Virus record (IMG/VR): IMGVR_UViG_2541047888_000009
Source: a virus
Lineage: Duplodnaviria; Heunggongvirae; Uroviricota; Caudoviricetes
Reading direction: 5' to 3' (one strand)
Length of the DNA: 40,155 nucleotides
The notes under the pieces: generated by a model
What the model saw: the letters and a program-made list of their open reading frames with translations, nothing else
Database searches by the model: none
What the model was told of the DNA's origin: nothing
Part shown: positions 1 through 40,155 of the stretch, piece after piece
Layout of the letters: the number at the start of each line of letters is the position of its first letter
Numbering within the stretch: position 1 is the first letter of the stretch
Position numbers and translations under genes: made by a program

Positions 1-516
1 ATGAAATTAAAAAAATGTCTTCTGCCTGTGGCAATGTTAGCGTCATTTACTCTGGCAGGATGCCAGTCAAATGCTGATGATCATGCCGCCGATGTTTATC
101 AAACCGATCAACTGAATACCAAACAAGAAACTAAAACCGTTAATATTATTTCCATTCTTCCCGCAAAAGTTGCCGTAGACAACGCCCAAAATAAACGGAA
201 CGCACAAGCCTTCGGCGCGCTTATTGGCGCTGTCGCTGGCGGTGTTATCGGCCACAACGTCGGGTCTGGCAGCAATTCCGGAACGACAGCAGGTGCAGTT
301 GGCGGCGGAGCTGTTGGCGCAGCAGCGGGTTCTATGGTGAATGATAAAACCTTAGTGGAAGGTGTTTCTTTAACATATAAGGAAGGCACCAAAGTGTATA
401 CCTCCACCCAGGTGGGTAAAGAGTGCCAGTTTACGACAGGTTTAGCCGTTGTTATTACCACGACGTATAACGAAACGCGTATTCAGCCAAATACCAAATG
501 TCCTGAAAAGAGCTAA
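1..516 (+). CDS. Outer-membrane lipoprotein with glycine-zipper domain (SlyB/Pcp-like); host flank or terminal moron
   Basis: Signal peptide ending in lipobox LAGC (MKLKKCLLPVAMLASFTLAGCQS); Gly/Ala-rich stretch GALIGAVAGGVIGHNVGSG...GGGAVGAAAGS typical of glycine-zipper lipoproteins. Family assignment from memory. Confidence 0.6.
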   Translation: MKLKKCLLPVAMLASFTLAGCQSNADDHAADVYQTDQLNTKQETKTVNIISILPAKVAVDNAQNKRNAQAFGALIGAVAGGVIGHNVGSGSNSGTTAGAVGGGAVGAAAGSMVNDKTLVEGVSLTYKEGTKVYTSTQVGKECQFTTGLAVVITTTYNETRIQPNTKCPEKS

Positions 517-531
517 TAATCAGGAGGAGTC

Positions 532-1072
532 ATGAAGAAAGTTTTTCTTTGCGCCATCTTAGCCTCCTTAAGCTATCCGGCTATCGCCTCATCATTGCAG
601 GATCAACTCTCGGCTGTCGCAGAAGCGGAACAGCAAGGTAAAAATGAAGAGCAAAGGCAGCATGACGAATGGGTCGCGGAGCGCAACAGGGAAATCCAGC
701 AAGAGAAGCAACGTCGCGCAAACGCCCAGGCCGCGGCTAATAAAAGAGCGGCAACGGCAGCAGCGAATAAGAAAGCTCGTCAGGATAAACTGGACGCCGA
801 AGCCACTGCGGACAAAAAAACGCGATCAAAGTTATGAAGATGAGCTACGTAGCTTAGAGATTCAGAAGCAAAAACTGGCGCTGGCGAAAGAAGAAGCCCG
901 CGTTAAGCGCGAAAACGAATTTATCGATCAGGAACTGAAGCACAAAGCTGCGCAAACCGATGTGGTGCAATCTGAAGCTGACGCAAACAGAAATATGACT
1001 GAAGGCGGTCGCGATCTGATGAAAAGCGTGGGTAAAGCAGAAGAGAACAAATCGGACAGCTGGTTTAACTAA
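532..1072 (+). pseudogene. Secreted coiled-coil protein split across two frames at an A7 homopolymer (814..820): frameshifted gene, sequencing error or slippage-prone tract
   Basis: ORF 532..837 has a strong RBS (AGGAGG at 521..526) and signal peptide (MKKVFLCAILASLSYPAIASS); the reading frame continues in the +1 frame ORF 644..1072. Removing one A from the A7 run joins them into one ~180-aa protein. Confidence 0.45.
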
Positions 1073-1110
1073 GCGATGTCAGTAACTTCAAGCCTATGAT
1101 TCGTGAGTAT

Positions 1111-1143
1111 AAAAAACCCTCTGTAGTAACAGAGGGTTTTGTT
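1111..1143. terminator. Bidirectional rho-independent terminator between the left-flank genes and the lysis operon
   Basis: AAAAAA-CCCTCTGT-AGTA-ACAGAGGG-TTTT: 8-bp GC-rich stem flanked by an A-run and a T-run, so it reads as hairpin plus U-tract on both strands. Confidence 0.6.
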
Positions 1144-1267
1144 CATTCATAGTACAGGGTTCAAATCATTCCCACTCAATTATTTACGACACACATAACC
1201 AATTGACTGATAACAACTTTCTGCAACCTGATTTTCGCCGTACCGTTTTATATACCGTCACCGGAAA

Positions 1268-1765
1268 TCAGTGCCACGATTTTTGTTTCTTCAGTGAATC
1301 GTATTGCTGTTCGCAGGATTCTCCTGCAATCCGATACTTTTCAGCCTCAGCTGCTGTTGCGTTGTAAACTCGGTTGCTTTCTTCAAGCATGTCGGCGAGC
1401 ACACCGATGACCTTGCTGGCTGACGTGCCAGTGGGGAAAGATCCGGTATAGTGTTCGGCGAGTCGCTTGGTTTTGTCAAGCTCGGCGCGCAGGCTGTCAG
1501 CAGCGGCATTAGCATGCTCAGCATCAACACGCGCCACATCGATACGGGATTGTGCTTCACGTTCAATTTGTGTTTTCTCCTGATCACGTTGTGACCTGGC
1601 CTTATCATCAGCCTGTTTCTGATCTTCCTGTGCCTGTGCATACCCGGCGTCGTACTGACGACTACCGTGTGCATTCCAGGCTACAACTCCTGATATGACC
1701 AGAACAGCAAGCATCGCCATGATAACCAACTGTTTCCAGTATGCTTTTGCGAATGCCCAGATCAT
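1268..1765 (-). CDS. Rz-like inner-membrane spanin (i-spanin)
   Basis: Last gene of the lysis cassette; N-terminal TM helix ([18 protein letters not shown]) followed by a charged coiled-coil region; start overlaps the endolysin stop. Confidence 0.6.
1291..1539 (-). CDS. Rz1-like outer-membrane lipoprotein spanin (o-spanin), embedded in the +1 frame of the Rz-like gene
   Basis: Alternate-frame ORF wholly inside 1268..1765 with signal-like [17 protein letters not shown], lipobox LTAC and a proline-rich mature region. Start codon choice uncertain. Confidence 0.4.
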   Translation of the reverse strand: MWRVLMLSMLMPLLTACAPSLTKPSDSPNTIPDLSPLARQPARSSVCSPTCLKKATEFTTQQQLRLKSIGLQENPANSNTIH

Positions 1766-2391
1766 ACCGCCAGCACCTTACTGGCAGTGATGTATCGCGC
1801 GCGCCGGTCATCAATGCCGTTCCGGCCACCATTGATAAGCAGAGTTACACGTGCAATATCTCCGGTATACTTCATGCAGCCTTTGCTGGAGAAGAACCAC
1901 GCCGCGCTACGAGCCGCGTATTCGTCCTGCGCCAACAGTTCAGGATTCTCCAGCAGGTCCACTTTCAGGCCGTTTCCGCAATCACGATAGTTATTCAAAC
2001 CGGTAATCTGGATAAGTCCGCGACCCCGGTAATTCCAGCCATCGCCGGGGGCATTGTTCCCCATGCGTTTGCTGTACACCAAATTTGCGATCGCACGCTG
2101 GCGCTCGAGTGGTAATGGCGGTTCACCAGCACGGCGACCCAGTGCGTTGGCCTGTCCCTGAGTGAGACGCCCAGCCCGAACAAAGTTAGCCAGTCCGCTG
2201 ACGCTGTAGTTGAAATTTTCCTGCAACCGGGTGAAACCTCCAGACTCATGCCCGACCTGAGCAATAAACATTGCCTGATCTTCTGGTTTGCTGATACCAA
2301 ACTCTTTCATCGCAGAAGTTATATGCGAGAACCAGCGTGCGGCCAGCGCCTCGCTAATACCAGCAGCTCGCTGGAATTGTTTAATCTCCAT
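1762..2391 (-). CDS. Endolysin, glycoside hydrolase family 19 (chitinase-like lysozyme)
   Basis: Start at internal ATG ([11 protein letters not shown]) preceded by a GAGG RBS; GH19-type motif [12 protein letters not shown]...[12 protein letters not shown]. The listed longer ORF (to 2556) is an upstream extension without RBS. Confidence 0.85.
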
Positions 2392-2689
2392 GTTTAGACC
2401 TCGATACTTTGAAAATTTGAACGACGTTACCGCGCGTTTTAATAACCGCAGCGAGCATGACAGCGTTGATAATGACCTCAGATAAATCCACAGCCATTGG
2501 CGTGCGGAACCAGATTGCATAGGCAACACGAACCGGAATACTGGCCGCAGCAACAATCAGGAAATAAGCAAGCCACCCCCCCCATCTTCGATGTTGAGAT
2601 CCGTTACGCCGGAATGTGACAACACGAATTGCTATGCCAGTACAAATAACTGCATTGGTGATAAGCAAAAAAAACTCATGCGTTACCAT
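2381..2689 (-). CDS. Small membrane protein in the lysis cassette (holin or antiholin candidate)
   Basis: 102 aa with 2-3 predicted TM segments; GGAG RBS 8 nt upstream; overlaps the endolysin start by 11 bp, suggesting translational coupling. Confidence 0.5.
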
Positions 2690-3080
2690 CGTCTTTTCTC
2701 CCCGGAATTAACTCGCGTGGATTATCGGAACGGTGGTAGAGCCATATACCAATACGCACAGCAACAATTGCTGACACGAATGCGCCAGCAGAGAAAACAA
2801 TCCCTTTTTCAAAAGAGTCCTGCGTGATAGTAGGGATCAGGCTGGCTATGCCGATAAGAATTGATGCTGCTGGTTTATAAAAAAGAAGGCCGCAGAGAAA
2901 GCTAAGCATCGACAAGAGTACACGACGACGAATGGGATACTCTACCGCAGAGGTAACAAAAATTACCGCTCCAGCCAAAGCCCCCAAAGCAACCTCAGGA
3001 GGAACTCCTGCTATCACCGCCGCCAGAGAACTCATGCTAAGCCACTGATTTAAAGTTTCACTGGTTAGTTGAGCTGACAT
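2676..3080 (-). CDS. Putative holin (multi-TM membrane protein)
   Basis: First gene of the lysis cassette; several hydrophobic helices (LAAVIAGVPPEVALGALAGAVIFV, ILIGIASLIP, FVSAIVAVRIGIWL); ATG at 3080 with GGTGGA RBS, alternative GTG at 3089. Confidence 0.5.
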   Translation of the reverse strand: MSAQLTSETLNQWLSMSSLAAVIAGVPPEVALGALAGAVIFVTSAVEYPIRRRVLLSMLSFLCGLLFYKPAASILIGIASLIPTITQDSFEKGIVFSAGAFVSAIVAVRIGIWLYHRSDNPRELIPGRKDDGNA

Positions 3081-3300
3081 GTTTTCCACCGTTTATATGC
3101 ATAACTACCTCCTGAACAGTAAAGCATTATGCATGATAAACCATTTATGGTTTTTTGTTACTTCAACATCGTCAATCCCCTGTTTTCATGCCGATAATAA
3201 GGCTCACCTTTTACATAACACTGAAGAAACAACAGTACAGAAATGATTCAAACTATGGAGATCGGGTTGAATACCGCGCCATTTGATGGCGCGGTAGCGG

Positions 3301-3621: not shown

Positions 3622-6396
3622 TTACACTCCTGATACTTCAATAGATAGTTGAATCTTATTTGGCATCTTGTTGCTTAAATATATGGTTGCAAAGTCAAAC
3701 GAAATATTTAAGTTATTTTCATCACCATCATTATCTGAAAGAACTCCGGTTTTCAATACAACATTTTGCTTATTAATTTCTTTTAAAGGAGAAAAATCAA
3801 TTGCCTCACCACGATGAATAAGAACACCAACTGCAATTACCCCATGAATATCAAGTATGTCGTGCATATCAAGGCGAACACATGGGACATATCCACCAAC
3901 AAGGATACTTGTAGATTTGTTGGCTTCAAGTGTTATTAGATATTTTCCGTCTGGTTGAACTATTGTTCCTGCTATTCCATCTGGCGTGTTGAACATACCG
4001 CAGTATCTGTATCCTGCTCCAACAGGAACAATTCTGTTACCGCCAAGATCATGGAAATTTCGAACAATTATTGCACCAGGAACTGATGAATAAACCATTA
4101 CTGCCTCTGTTTGCCCTGATACAGAGTCTGATGTTTCTGGGTTCGCCATGCATAAATTACCACCAAAATAAATATTTTGGATTAGAGGGGTGAGGCCATC
4201 ATTAACCTCAAAACGTAAAAAGCCCTTGAGAACAGTCCTTGCGGTATTATTCTTAATAACAACAGGAAGTTCTTTATAGTAAGAGTTTCTGTCTGTCTGT
4301 GCCAGAGTTGTTTCAATAAAAACAAAAGGTCTGTGATTACGTTGAGTTGCATTCACAGGTTTGTACCTCAAGTTGTATGGCAAAGACATCTCAGTAAAAC
4401 CATCAATATAATTACAGTTCTGAATCGTGAACCCACCACCACTATATCTTACAAAAAAAGGAGCCGGGCCGCTAAATCCCCTGGCGTTCATTCCATCATA
4501 CACTTCATTTAATCCGCGTATTACACCAGCATAATACAAATTGACTGAATTGCCGCCTGTAAAAGTTGTTTCGTATGATGGGCCGTGTCCACCGCAACAT
4601 GAATTTCTTGTATCGCCATCAGGGAAAAATTTAACTCCATCATATGCAGTTCCACCACCCATCATCGTTGGATTTATAATGTTATTATACAGTGATACCA
4701 TTTGAGTCCCGCTTACATCAAGCCCCCTCCTGCAAGCAAATGCTATCATATCCACGACTGTGCAATAGCTGCTATTGTATATTTCAACACCATAACCAGT
4801 GCCGTTTGTTAAATCATATGCACGGTTTGAGTATTCAATATATGGCTCTATTATTTTCGTTCTGTAGCATGACTCAAGAAAAATTCCAGTTTCTGAAAAG
4901 CCGATTAGTTTTATTCCTTCTATATGCATATCAACAGCGCCATCTATCACAAGACCACGGAACCCCAAATCACCAGGAGATGCGTTCTGCGTGACAGGTC
5001 TTTCAAAATTGAAATCACCGACAATTCTGCCGTAGCATGGTTTTCTTTTATATATATTTGCCTTTCTTGTGATTTTAAACACGTCTCCAACAGATGGTTT
5101 AAACGGGAATGGTCCCTGAGCATATTCAAATTTTGCTGTTTTAGTGTCGTAATCCCAATGAGTTATGTATCTTGATATTCCGGCGTTAGCTCCGGTGACA
5201 CCTGTTACTTTTACCTGATTGTATTGTTTTGTTAATGTTGCATCATTACCAAATGAGAATTCACCTCCGGATACAGATGCTGTTACGGTCGTTGAGTAAT
5301 CATTGCTCGCAGAGTAGAAAAAATAAAATGCACCTGATATCTCCGCTTTTTTTGTTGCATTATCAAAAGCAGTAACAACATGCATTTCACCTTCACAAGC
5401 CTGTCCTCTATTATCTGTCTGAATTAAGCGATTACCATGAATCATAATTATATCGCCTGCATCAAAAGAATATGCTGAGTTAATTGATATTGATGTGTCA
5501 CCAGGATTTATTGTTGAATTATAGTCAATTGGCGTGGCATCTCCACCTTCGAGTCTTATGAAATAATCATCAATCCAGTTTGGACCAAGAGGCTCTTTTG
5601 CGGTTGACTTTAAGACAACCTTGCCATCAGCTACCCAGTCATAGTTATAATTATCCCCGCCGCATTTTATGCGGCTAATCAAATACACACCAGAATCCCA
5701 CTTCAGGCGTTTTCCGTTAGATGCGCAGTAAATGATGGCATTTGTTATTGCGTCTGTATCGTCAGTAATGCCATCCCCTTTTGCACCAAAATCGCGAACA
5801 TTGACGATATCCCGCATCTTATCCTGGAACGTTCGATATACTGCCCCAAAACCATACTGAATAAACCAACCAAAACCACCAACAACCCCGGCGATTGCAG
5901 CATCGACATAATTACGCATTGAGCGATTATTTACAGCATCCTGCTCAAGTGATGGATCTGCAAGGTTAGAAATTCTGTTTTGCTTTGCATCGTAATATTT
6001 TGCAAGCAAAGATGGTTTCATCAATGCACGTCTGAACCACCCAAAACATCGCTGGATCAGCATCGTCAGGTAGTCAAATGCATCCTCATGAACTTCGGGG
6101 AAAAATTTTCCCTGATTGCGAAGATCAGTCTCCTGCACCACATCAAGCACACGCTCTATCGTGATTTTCCAGCCAGCAGCAAGCGGCGACGGAAGAACAA
6201 CAGAACCGCCACTATAAGTGCCCGCCCCAGTTACCGTATAACCGGTATCCAGAACCAATTCTGTTACGTTACCGTTCAGGTCAGACACCTGAACAACCAG
6301 GTCTGTTTTTTTGAAAATGCGGAAGGTATACGGAAATGATGTCGTAACGCCGTTACCTGTGTATTCGTTGTGGTCAACTTCGGTTGAGACCGTCAT
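3622..6396 (-). CDS. Tailspike protein: T7 gp17-like N-terminal adaptor domain fused to a pectate-lyase-like beta-helix (polysaccharide depolymerase type)
   Basis: N-terminus EYTGNGVTTSFPYTFRIFKKTDLVV resembles the T7 tail-fibre N-terminal domain; internal motif NVRDFGAKGDGITDDTDAITNAI is typical of pectate-lyase superfamily beta-helix tailspikes; GGAG RBS. Confidence 0.8.
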   Translation of the reverse strand: MTVSTEVDHNEYTGNGVTTSFPYTFRIFKKTDLVVQVSDLNGNVTELVLDTGYTVTGAGTYSGGSVVLPSPLAAGWKITIERVLDVVQETDLRNQGKFFPEVHEDAFDYLTMLIQRCFGWFRRALMKPSLLAKYYDAKQNRISNLADPSLEQDAVNNRSMRNYVDAAIAGVVGGFGWFIQYGFGAVYRTFQDKMRDIVNVRDFGAKGDGITDDTDAITNAIIYCASNGKRLKWDSGVYLISRIKCGGDNYNYDWVADGKVVLKSTAKEPLGPNWIDDYFIRLEGGDATPIDYNSTINPGDTSISINSAYSFDAGDIIMIHGNRLIQTDNRGQACEGEMHVVTAFDNATKKAEISGAFYFFYSASNDYSTTVTASVSGGEFSFGNDATLTKQYNQVKVTGVTGANAGISRYITHWDYDTKTAKFEYAQGPFPFKPSVGDVFKITRKANIYKRKPCYGRIVGDFNFERPVTQNASPGDLGFRGLVIDGAVDMHIEGIKLIGFSETGIFLESCYRTKIIEPYIEYSNRAYDLTNGTGYGVEIYNSSYCTVVDMIAFACRRGLDVSGTQMVSLYNNIINPTMMGGGTAYDGVKFFPDGDTRNSCCGGHGPSYETTFTGGNSVNLYYAGVIRGLNEVYDGMNARGFSGPAPFFVRYSGGGFTIQNCNYIDGFTEMSLPYNLRYKPVNATQRNHRPFVFIETTLAQTDRNSYYKELPVVIKNNTARTVLKGFLRFEVNDGLTPLIQNIYFGGNLCMANPETSDSVSGQTEAVMVYSSVPGAIIVRNFHDLGGNRIVPVGAGYRYCGMFNTPDGIAGTIVQPDGKYLITLEANKSTSILVGGYVPCVRLDMHDILDIHGVIAVGVLIHRGEAIDFSPLKEINKQNVVLKTGVLSDNDGDENNLNISFDFATIYLSNKMPNKIQLSIEVSGV

Positions 6397-23779: not shown

Positions 23780-23856
23780 GTGGCATTAGCTCAGTCGGAC
23801 AGAGCAACCGCCTTCTAAGCGGTTGGTCGCAGGTTCGAATCCTGCATGCCACGCCA
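23780..23856 (+). tRNA. tRNA-Arg (anticodon UCU, reads AGA)
   Basis: Full cloverleaf folded by hand: acceptor GTGGCAT/ATGCCAC, D-arm GCTC-AGTCGGACA-GAGC, anticodon arm ACCGC-CTTCTAA-GCGGT, T-arm GCAGG-TTCGAAT-CCTGC, discriminator G, encoded CCA. Confidence 0.85.
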
Positions 23857-38904: not shown

Positions 38905-40155
38905 TTATTCTCCCGCCATCCACTTCTCAAACTTCGACGGGGAGAACGGAATCAGATCCGTATGCTCCCCGTCAATCCAGGAATCAATCATATCGGCCCA
39001 CTGCTGCAACATGTAGGCGCGCTGTCTGGCGTATTCCGCTTTGTTATATACGGCGCGCACACCTTTCTGCTCATGTGCCAGAGCCTTTTCAATCCAGTCT
39101 GAAGGATAACCAGCCTCATGCAACAACGTACTGGCTGTACGGCGCATATCATGTACGGTGAAGTCCTGAATATGCTCACCATCTTCATTTATTATTTTCA
39201 CCGTTCTGTCGATCAGAGAGTTCAGCGCGGCATTAGATAATGGCTTCCGGAAATTGTAACGCCCAGGAACAAGATATTCACTTCCACCAGCGCACATCTG
39301 CAACCCAACCAATATATCCTGTGCCTGTTTAGGCAGGTAAATAACGTGCGCCCGGCTTCCCTTCATGCGGTATGAAGGAATTGTCCATGTCCATTTTTTA
39401 AAATCTATTTCATCCCACGTTGCATTGGTGAATTCGCCTTTACGAACCATAGTGATAAGCACCAGCTTTAAAGCCATTTTCATAGTGCCCATAGCACCAA
39501 TGGCATCCAGCGTGCGGAAGAACAGGCCAATTTCTTCTGGTGTCAGTGTTCGCTCTCGTGGTTTAAATATGGCGATAGACGAAGGTTTAATGTCAGCCGC
39601 AGGATTAAACAAACCATGACCACGGTCATTGGCGTGACGGTATACGCTGCTGATGATCTCCCTGGCCTGTACTGCTGTTGCCCGACCACCACGTTCGACA
39701 ATCCGGTCACACAAATCACGAACCATCGATGTGGTAATTTCAGCCATCATTTTGTTGCCAAGAACCGGAAGTATGTCACGGTCGATCACCGCCTGCTTCA
39801 TTGCGCGGGTACTGTCAGCCAGGATGACGTGTTTCATATAACTGTCGGTATGTACCGCAAACGTCTCGGCACCACGAATCTTTTTGATACCGTCACGTTT
39901 AGCCGCAGCCGGTGACTGGCCTGCTTTAAGCAGCTTCTTTGCAGCAATCAGTTCTTCTCGCGCTTCTGCCAGGCTGATACCGTCACGCCCATACTGCCCG
40001 ATTACCAGTGTTTCGCGGCGACCGTTGATACGGTAGTCATAGCGAAACGAGACCGTGCCTGACGTAAGCACAGCTACATACAGCCCGTCACGATCGGAGA
40101 CCTTGTACAGTTTGTCCTGCGGCTTGAGGTTTTTTAATTTTGTATCGGTAAGCAC
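38905..40155 (-). CDS. int: Tyrosine integrase, P4-type; N-terminus at or beyond the window edge
   Basis: N-terminal LTDTKLKNLKPQDKLYKVSDRDGLYVAV and C-terminal HDMRRTASTLLHEAGYPSDWIEKALAHE with RAVYNKAEY (catalytic Tyr region); the first codon in the window is GTG at 40153..40155, so the true start may lie outside. Confidence 0.85.
   Translation of the reverse strand: MLTDTKLKNLKPQDKLYKVSDRDGLYVAVLTSGTVSFRYDYRINGRRETLVIGQYGRDGISLAEAREELIAAKKLLKAGQSPAAAKRDGIKKIRGAETFAVHTDSYMKHVILADSTRAMKQAVIDRDILPVLGNKMMAEITTSMVRDLCDRIVERGGRATAVQAREIISSVYRHANDRGHGLFNPAADIKPSSIAIFKPRERTLTPEEIGLFFRTLDAIGAMGTMKMALKLVLITMVRKGEFTNATWDEIDFKKWTWTIPSYRMKGSRAHVIYLPKQAQDILVGLQMCAGGSEYLVPGRYNFRKPLSNAALNSLIDRTVKIINEDGEHIQDFTVHDMRRTASTLLHEAGYPSDWIEKALAHEQKGVRAVYNKAEYARQRAYMLQQWADMIDSWIDGEHTDLIPFSPSKFEKWMAGE

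Follow-up and report, generated by a model that had tools for sequence, protein, structure and literature searches.

The gene at positions 532 to 1072 of the window (the whole stretch of 40,155 nt analyzed here) is yfgI of Escherichia coli, and it very probably represents a real, rare and heritable frameshift pseudogene, created by slipped-strand mispairing. A single A has been inserted into a run of six (A6). In the resulting run of seven (A7) the reading frame is shifted, and the conserved C-terminal half of the protein is left behind in another frame. A sequence-only reading of this DNA had described the gene of one secreted helical protein, broken by a one-base change in the length of an A run. 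This description agrees with the present analysis, in which a single domain, DUF5384, is found split between the two frames. That reading had also left three explanations side by side: sequencing error, pseudogene and phase-variable tract. The pseudogene is supported by the presence of the same allele in many independent assemblies, with three different downstream arrangements and on two chromosomal backgrounds. Events of this kind are ordinary, and the gene concerned is known but poorly characterized.

The yfgI locus and its features

According to the annotation of matching genomes, the left end of the window is E. coli chromosome, with the gene order pdeF-yfgG-yfgH-yfgI-guaA. The broken gene occupies the orthologous position of yfgI, downstream of yfgH and convergent with guaA; here, however, a prophage separates yfgI from guaA. 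The features of the window are as follows.

1..516, plus strand: yfgH, glycine-zipper outer-membrane lipoprotein, first gene of the yfgHI operon; intact (from the ORF and the annotation of matches)
522..527, plus strand: Shine-Dalgarno sequence AGGAGG of yfgI, read from the sequence, 4 nt before the ATG at 532
532..1072, plus strand: entire yfgI pseudogene (DUF5384), 179 aa with one A taken out
532..588, plus strand: predicted Sec signal peptide, MKKVFLCAILASLSYPAIA, judged by eye, with an A-I-A cleavage motif and without a lipobox
532..837, plus strand: ORF open in this strain, 101 aa (signal peptide, native residues 20-96, foreign TRSKL, TGA)
814..820, plus strand: A7 run, the site of the mutation; the ancestral A6 is Lys-Lys (AAA AAA)
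821..1072, plus strand: C-terminal part of yfgI, stranded in the +1 frame; 83 codons and TAA, beginning RDQSYEDELR
1113..1140, plus strand: predicted intrinsic terminator hairpin 3′ of yfgI (fold -22.8 kcal/mol, z = -6.8)
1166..1180, minus strand: last guaA codons (IEWE and stop), then the prophage junction; the CFT073 alignment ends 15 nt inside the guaA 3′ end
1268-3089, minus strand: prophage lysis genes
23780-23856, plus strand: prophage tRNA-Arg (anticodon TCT), present as well in the annotation of the near-identical 1517k prophage
38905-40155, minus strand: prophage integrase

The strong ribosome-binding site and the signal peptide noticed in the sequence-only reading are both present: AGGAGG lies at 522-527, and the N-terminus, MKKVFLCAILASLSYPAIA followed by SS, is judged by eye to be of the Sec type. 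In the family profile scan, the yfgH region gave weak matches to glycine-zipper families. The terminator hairpin is preceded by an A-run and followed by a U-run, and it is probably bidirectional, serving both yfgI and the convergent guaA. It was found by folding; a simple consensus terminator scan did not pick up a hairpin after yfgI. Since yfgI is the last gene of the operon, the frameshift has no targets for a polar effect.

The frame break lies within one conserved domain

In the zero frame the sequence around the run reads GAC AAA AAA ACG CGA TCA AAG TTA TGA. Translation thus enters five foreign codons (T R S K L) before a stop, as had been noticed from the sequence; the stop is at 835-837, after 101 codons in all. 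The +1 frame is open from position 821 for 83 codons (about 80 had been claimed) and ends with TAA at 1070-1072. When one A is taken out, a protein of 179 aa is obtained, close to the 180 aa estimated previously, and it is identical to WP_000755178.1, the protein of strains CFT073 and 1517k. The A7 run by itself is not unusual, given that 17 such runs are observed in the window versus 12.0 ± 4.4 expected. What goes beyond chance is the coincidence of the run with a break in one Pfam domain.

The domain is Pfam PF17358 (DUF5384). Profile positions 1-64 are matched by the N-terminal piece (46 bits) and positions 64-145 by the C-terminal piece (152 bits), and with the corrected protein the score reaches 209 bits over positions 1-145, so that the family match is full-length. 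A scan of both fragments against NCBIfam returned no family; the identification of DUF5384 comes from Pfam. The C-terminal half is the most conserved part of the family, its motif being kept from Escherichia to Pseudomonas. In a single-sequence AlphaFold2 model, intact YfgI forms one continuous helix over residues 16-178 (mean pLDDT 88), and the signal-peptide residues are non-helical with low pLDDT. Judging from this model, it is reasonable, if unproven, to regard YfgI as an elongated, possibly coiled-coil periplasmic protein. No further lesions were seen in the stranded C-terminal frame, which suggests either that the mutation is recent or that the frame is still of some use.

Ancestral state and orthologues

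With a 661-nt query, 5,419 of the 5,426 complete E. coli genomes gave a match to the locus, the best ones being those of the ST73-type strains CFT073, Nissle 1917, ABU 83972 and ATCC 25922, each with a single gap. Over window positions 1-1180 the extra A (A7 versus A6) is the sole difference from CFT073. In both CFT073 and 1517k, yfgI is annotated as intact, a 'DUF5384 family protein' of 179 aa. A6 is present in these two strains and in other Escherichia species, where it encodes Lys95-Lys96. By this comparison of sequences, A6 is the ancestral state and the lesion is one inserted A.

Among species-representative genomes, yfgI is a single ORF in Escherichia ruysiae, E. whittamii, E. albertii, Citrobacter, Xenorhabdus, Pantoea and Pseudomonas duriflava. 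In the orthologues the motif DKKRDQSYEDELR straddles the position of the break, and the two-frame layout was seen in no orthologue examined, three error-rich assemblies apart. The comparison of orthologous loci, which had been proposed together with the sequence-only reading, therefore yielded one gene and not two separate ones. The codons of the Lys-Lys pair vary across genera: AAA AAA, AAA AAG, AAG AAA and AAG AAG are all found, and E. albertii has AAA CAG. Since these codons drift between AAA and AAG, the homopolymer is incidental and not maintained.

The three exceptional assemblies (CP178302.1, CP182557.1 and CP178306.1) are 'complete' E. coli/Shigella genomes listed as species representatives. 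Their yfgI copies carry many frameshifts and substitutions, with 59-81% identity and multiple stops. This looks like error-rich assembly, not biology, and may also be the reason why these genomes stand as separate 'species'. Two other hits, in assemblies of the Gram-positive bacteria Fredinandcohnia humi (274 bp) and Brevibacterium sp. (336 bp), are fragments 99-100% identical to E. coli yfgI, located on tiny contigs with coverage below 1x; they are almost certainly contamination. A few other rare yfgI variants were also noticed. One metagenome contig (L130) reads ...GATGAGAAACAAAAACTG, which would fit an in-frame loss of about 21 nt (LRSLEIQ) immediately past the tract, and two more (L041 and L086) differ upstream of the tract.

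Rarity of the A7 allele

The frequency of A7 was estimated in three collections. First, each of the three main local haplotypes was used in its A7 form as a 75-nt query, and exact matches were counted per haplotype. There was no exact match to any of them in about 5,200-5,400 complete E. coli genomes. Second, metagenome contigs were scanned with a pattern allowing A5 to A8, which gave at least 120 matches; of the 120 listed, about 97% have one of the three main haplotypes. All 120 carry A6, and A5, A7 and A8 were found in none. Third, exact copies of the truncated 101-aa product occur in 209 index blocks of a public gene-position collection, versus 74,581 blocks for the intact protein of identical amino-acid sequence. 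This corresponds to roughly 0.3%, an approximate ratio only, as index blocks are not equivalent to genomes. The zero count in complete genomes for the three main haplotypes is somewhat below what a frequency of 0.3% suggests, and clonal sampling can explain the shortfall. The same 101-aa product is absent from the clustered protein collection; evidently, this collection and the gene-position index differ in content. A handful of relevant papers on yfgI contain no mention of the A7 allele.

Carriers, backgrounds and number of origins

Of the 209 blocks, 24 were read, and they contain NCBI isolate drafts and ENA gut-metagenome assemblies from different samples. All nine loci whose DNA was returned carry A7. 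Eight of the nine have a CFT073-like haplotype, with 0-1 SNP over 3.6 kb, and for one of them (GCA_000460215.1, scaffold KE701595.1) a comparison over 3,837 nt gives 100% identity to the window. Downstream of yfgI, these CFT073-like loci have guaA directly, the prophage of the window, or a second type of prophage, whose lysis genes are about 93% identical to those of the window. Two of the loci, one with a prophage (L003) and one without (L004), have an extra SNP in common besides A7. Given their different prophage content, A7 has thus been carried through some diversification. Among complete genomes, none combines the chromosomal haplotype of the window with either type of prophage.

In the ninth locus, A7 is found on another haplotype, which differs from the window by about 45 SNPs and a 9-bp indel. 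This haplotype is that of complete genomes such as SK1144, SA186 and AR_0089 but for one base of length, these genomes having the 74-nt A6 form. As the background is otherwise identical to that of A6 genomes, the insertion appears to have arisen at least twice; the formal alternative would be the transfer of A7 on a recombination patch of less than 460 bp. All nine A7 loci share the B2-type local 75-nt haplotype, which accounts for about 43% of the listed metagenome contigs whose 74-nt region has the same ACT (Thr) codon.

The adjoining prophage

Positions 1181-40155 of the window represent a phiV10/epsilon15-like, podovirus-type prophage inserted at the 3′ end of guaA, with the IEWE and stop codon of guaA retained at the junction. 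The phages most closely related to it are Escherichia phage phiv142-3, at 89% coverage and 96.9% identity, and phiV10. In otherwise near-identical strains, the guaA site is empty or occupied by a different, related prophage. A phage insertion between yfgI and guaA has been noted before (PMC10050402). Besides the A7 run, the only other indel relative to 1517k is at position 1162, where the spacer that separates the yfgI terminator from the guaA stop shows A3 versus A4. At this position CFT073 agrees with the window in length, and the difference is therefore ordinary background variation.

Origin of the pseudogene and alternative explanations

In the proposed scenario, slipped-strand mispairing at replication within A6 (Lys95-Lys96) would have added one A and produced A7. 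It was reported that indel rates in E. coli climb exponentially with homopolymer length (PMC8510543). From the normal start, the A7 allele would give the 101-aa product and, after export, a fragment of about 82 aa that would lack the conserved C-terminal half of DUF5384. The 83 C-terminal codons would be left in the +1 frame, where they lack a signal peptide. We infer both the origin by replication slippage and the absence of appreciable read-through; on these grounds the periplasmic function of YfgI is most probably lost, and the allele can be regarded as a putative yfgI null. The allele is stably inherited in a small sub-lineage with the CFT073/ST73-like local haplotype. A second origin on another background would be expected of a mildly indel-prone run present in an enormous number of genomes.

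Two independent origins and an undamaged downstream frame are also compatible with less conventional possibilities, namely that A6 and A7 form a low-frequency reversible switch, or that full-length YfgI is made from A7 through +1 slippage of tRNA-Lys. The probability of this is slight, and both phase variation and recoding are unlikely. If either were true, an extraintestinal E. coli sub-lineage would adjust how much of a periplasmic envelope-stress protein it makes, which is different from simply losing the protein.

There is a small chance that the A run is a true contingency locus, a phase-variable tract with frequent, reversible switching of YfgI between on (A6) and off (A7). The change is indeed located in a mononucleotide run, seems to have occurred at least two times independently, and left the downstream frame undamaged; moreover, both states exist among very close relatives. 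However, the run is only 6-7 nt long. Homopolymer phase variation in bacteria with proficient repair typically involves runs of at least 8 nt and is not known to be common in E. coli. The off state is also very rare (none in about 5,400 complete genomes, 0 of the 120 listed contigs, about 0.3% of the blocks), and neither A5 nor A8 is seen among the 120 listed metagenome contigs. Furthermore, the AAA/AAG drift of the orthologous Lys codons indicates that the repeat is not maintained, and A7 has persisted in strains with different prophage content and a SNP difference, which points to stability. The phase-variable tract of the sequence-only reading is thus disfavored by the shortness of the run, by A6 in essentially all genomes sampled and by orthologues in which the homopolymer is not kept.

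It is very improbable that the strain truly has A6 and that the extra A is a homopolymer miscall made in sequencing or assembly. Homopolymer length errors are a classic artefact on several sequencing platforms, and A7 occurs in none of about 5,400 complete genomes, which might be taken as a hint in this direction. Nevertheless, the identical truncated product in 209 index blocks comes from unrelated projects and metagenomes. All nine A7 loci have the B2-type haplotype, found in only about 43% of the listed comparable metagenome contigs, a concentration not to be expected of random miscalls. In addition, window positions 1163-26680 (25.5 kb) align to 1517k with 11 SNPs and no indels. This near-identical alignment of the prophage without indels indicates that the assembly is not indel-prone. 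For the same two reasons, the truncated product in 209 blocks and the indel-free adjoining prophage, the option of a sequencing error raised from the sequence does not find favor.

Recoding of A7, whereby full-length YfgI would be made at a reduced, regulated level by tRNA-Lys +1 slippage or by slippage of RNA polymerase, is hardly to be expected. As read from the sequence, a tRNA-Lys on the AAA at 817-819 could re-pair perfectly with 818-820, and the product would be exactly the wild-type protein; non-programmed frameshift suppression in the per-cent range has been documented for E. coli (PMC10861913). On the other hand, the two-frame arrangement is conserved in no orthologue, and a stimulator is not seen, as the next zero-frame codon, ACG, is not rare and does not stop translation. 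Transcriptional slippage is visibly selected against from runs of about 9 nt (PMC1088944), versus 7 nt here. Transcription indels in runs in E. coli are single insertions, with deletions being rare (PMC5574713). Since restoration of the frame requires -1 or +2, this common error would not restore it. Finally, two genuine adjacent genes, with the 101-aa ORF and the downstream ORF both functional, have next to no probability: gene callers do call a separate downstream ORF of 88-110 aa in some assemblies, but one Pfam domain spans both pieces, the orthologues are single ORFs with DKKRDQSYEDELR across the break (apart from the three error-rich assemblies), and a signal peptide is missing from the downstream piece.

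Implications of the yfgI pseudogene

The frameshift pseudogene described above has some practical implications. First, the locus is better labeled as a yfgI pseudogene (frameshifted) than as two hypothetical ORFs. Second, the A7 allele could help to mark a lineage among ST73-like E. coli. Third, A7 strains are candidate natural yfgI nulls for studying nalidixic acid sensitivity and the role of yfgHI, an operon that is poorly understood. In this respect, it was reported that the survival of a yfgI deletion mutant in nalidixic acid is 7% of that of the wild type (PMC3536626), and the orthologues of yfgHI in S. Typhi, srgIL, are regulated by SdiA (PMC11619404). More generally, a homopolymer frameshift in a draft genome is not necessarily a sequencing error.

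Comparison with known systems

The window copy has the same locus and synteny as E. coli K-12 yfgI (b2506, PF17358), the second gene of yfgHI. It differs from the K-12 gene by the +1A frameshift after codon 96, and the conserved C-terminal half should not be made from it.

Genes that depend on slippage or programmed frameshifting, such as Thermus dnaX (A9), Shigella mxiE (T9) and prfB (+1), resemble the present case in having overlapping frames joined at a slippery run. In contrast to them, the yfgI run is below about 9 nt (PMC1088944), is not accompanied by a stimulatory element, and its two-frame layout is absent from orthologues. The direction of slippage that yfgI requires also mismatches the usual transcription error of E. 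coli (PMC5574713). The contingency loci of Neisseria, Haemophilus and Campylobacter share with yfgI a frame switch by one unit of run length in the gene of an envelope protein. However, yfgI has a short run of 6-7 nt, which orthologues do not conserve as a repeat, which almost always has the on length and which has been seen in no other lengths.

There is also a likeness to the lineage-specific frameshift pseudogenes found at short homopolymers in enterobacteria. As in those cases, a single-base indel is located in a run, intact orthologues exist everywhere else, and inheritance is clonal with an otherwise undecayed locus. There is no difference of note between them and yfgI, and the two apparently independent origins are the only modest addition to this pattern.
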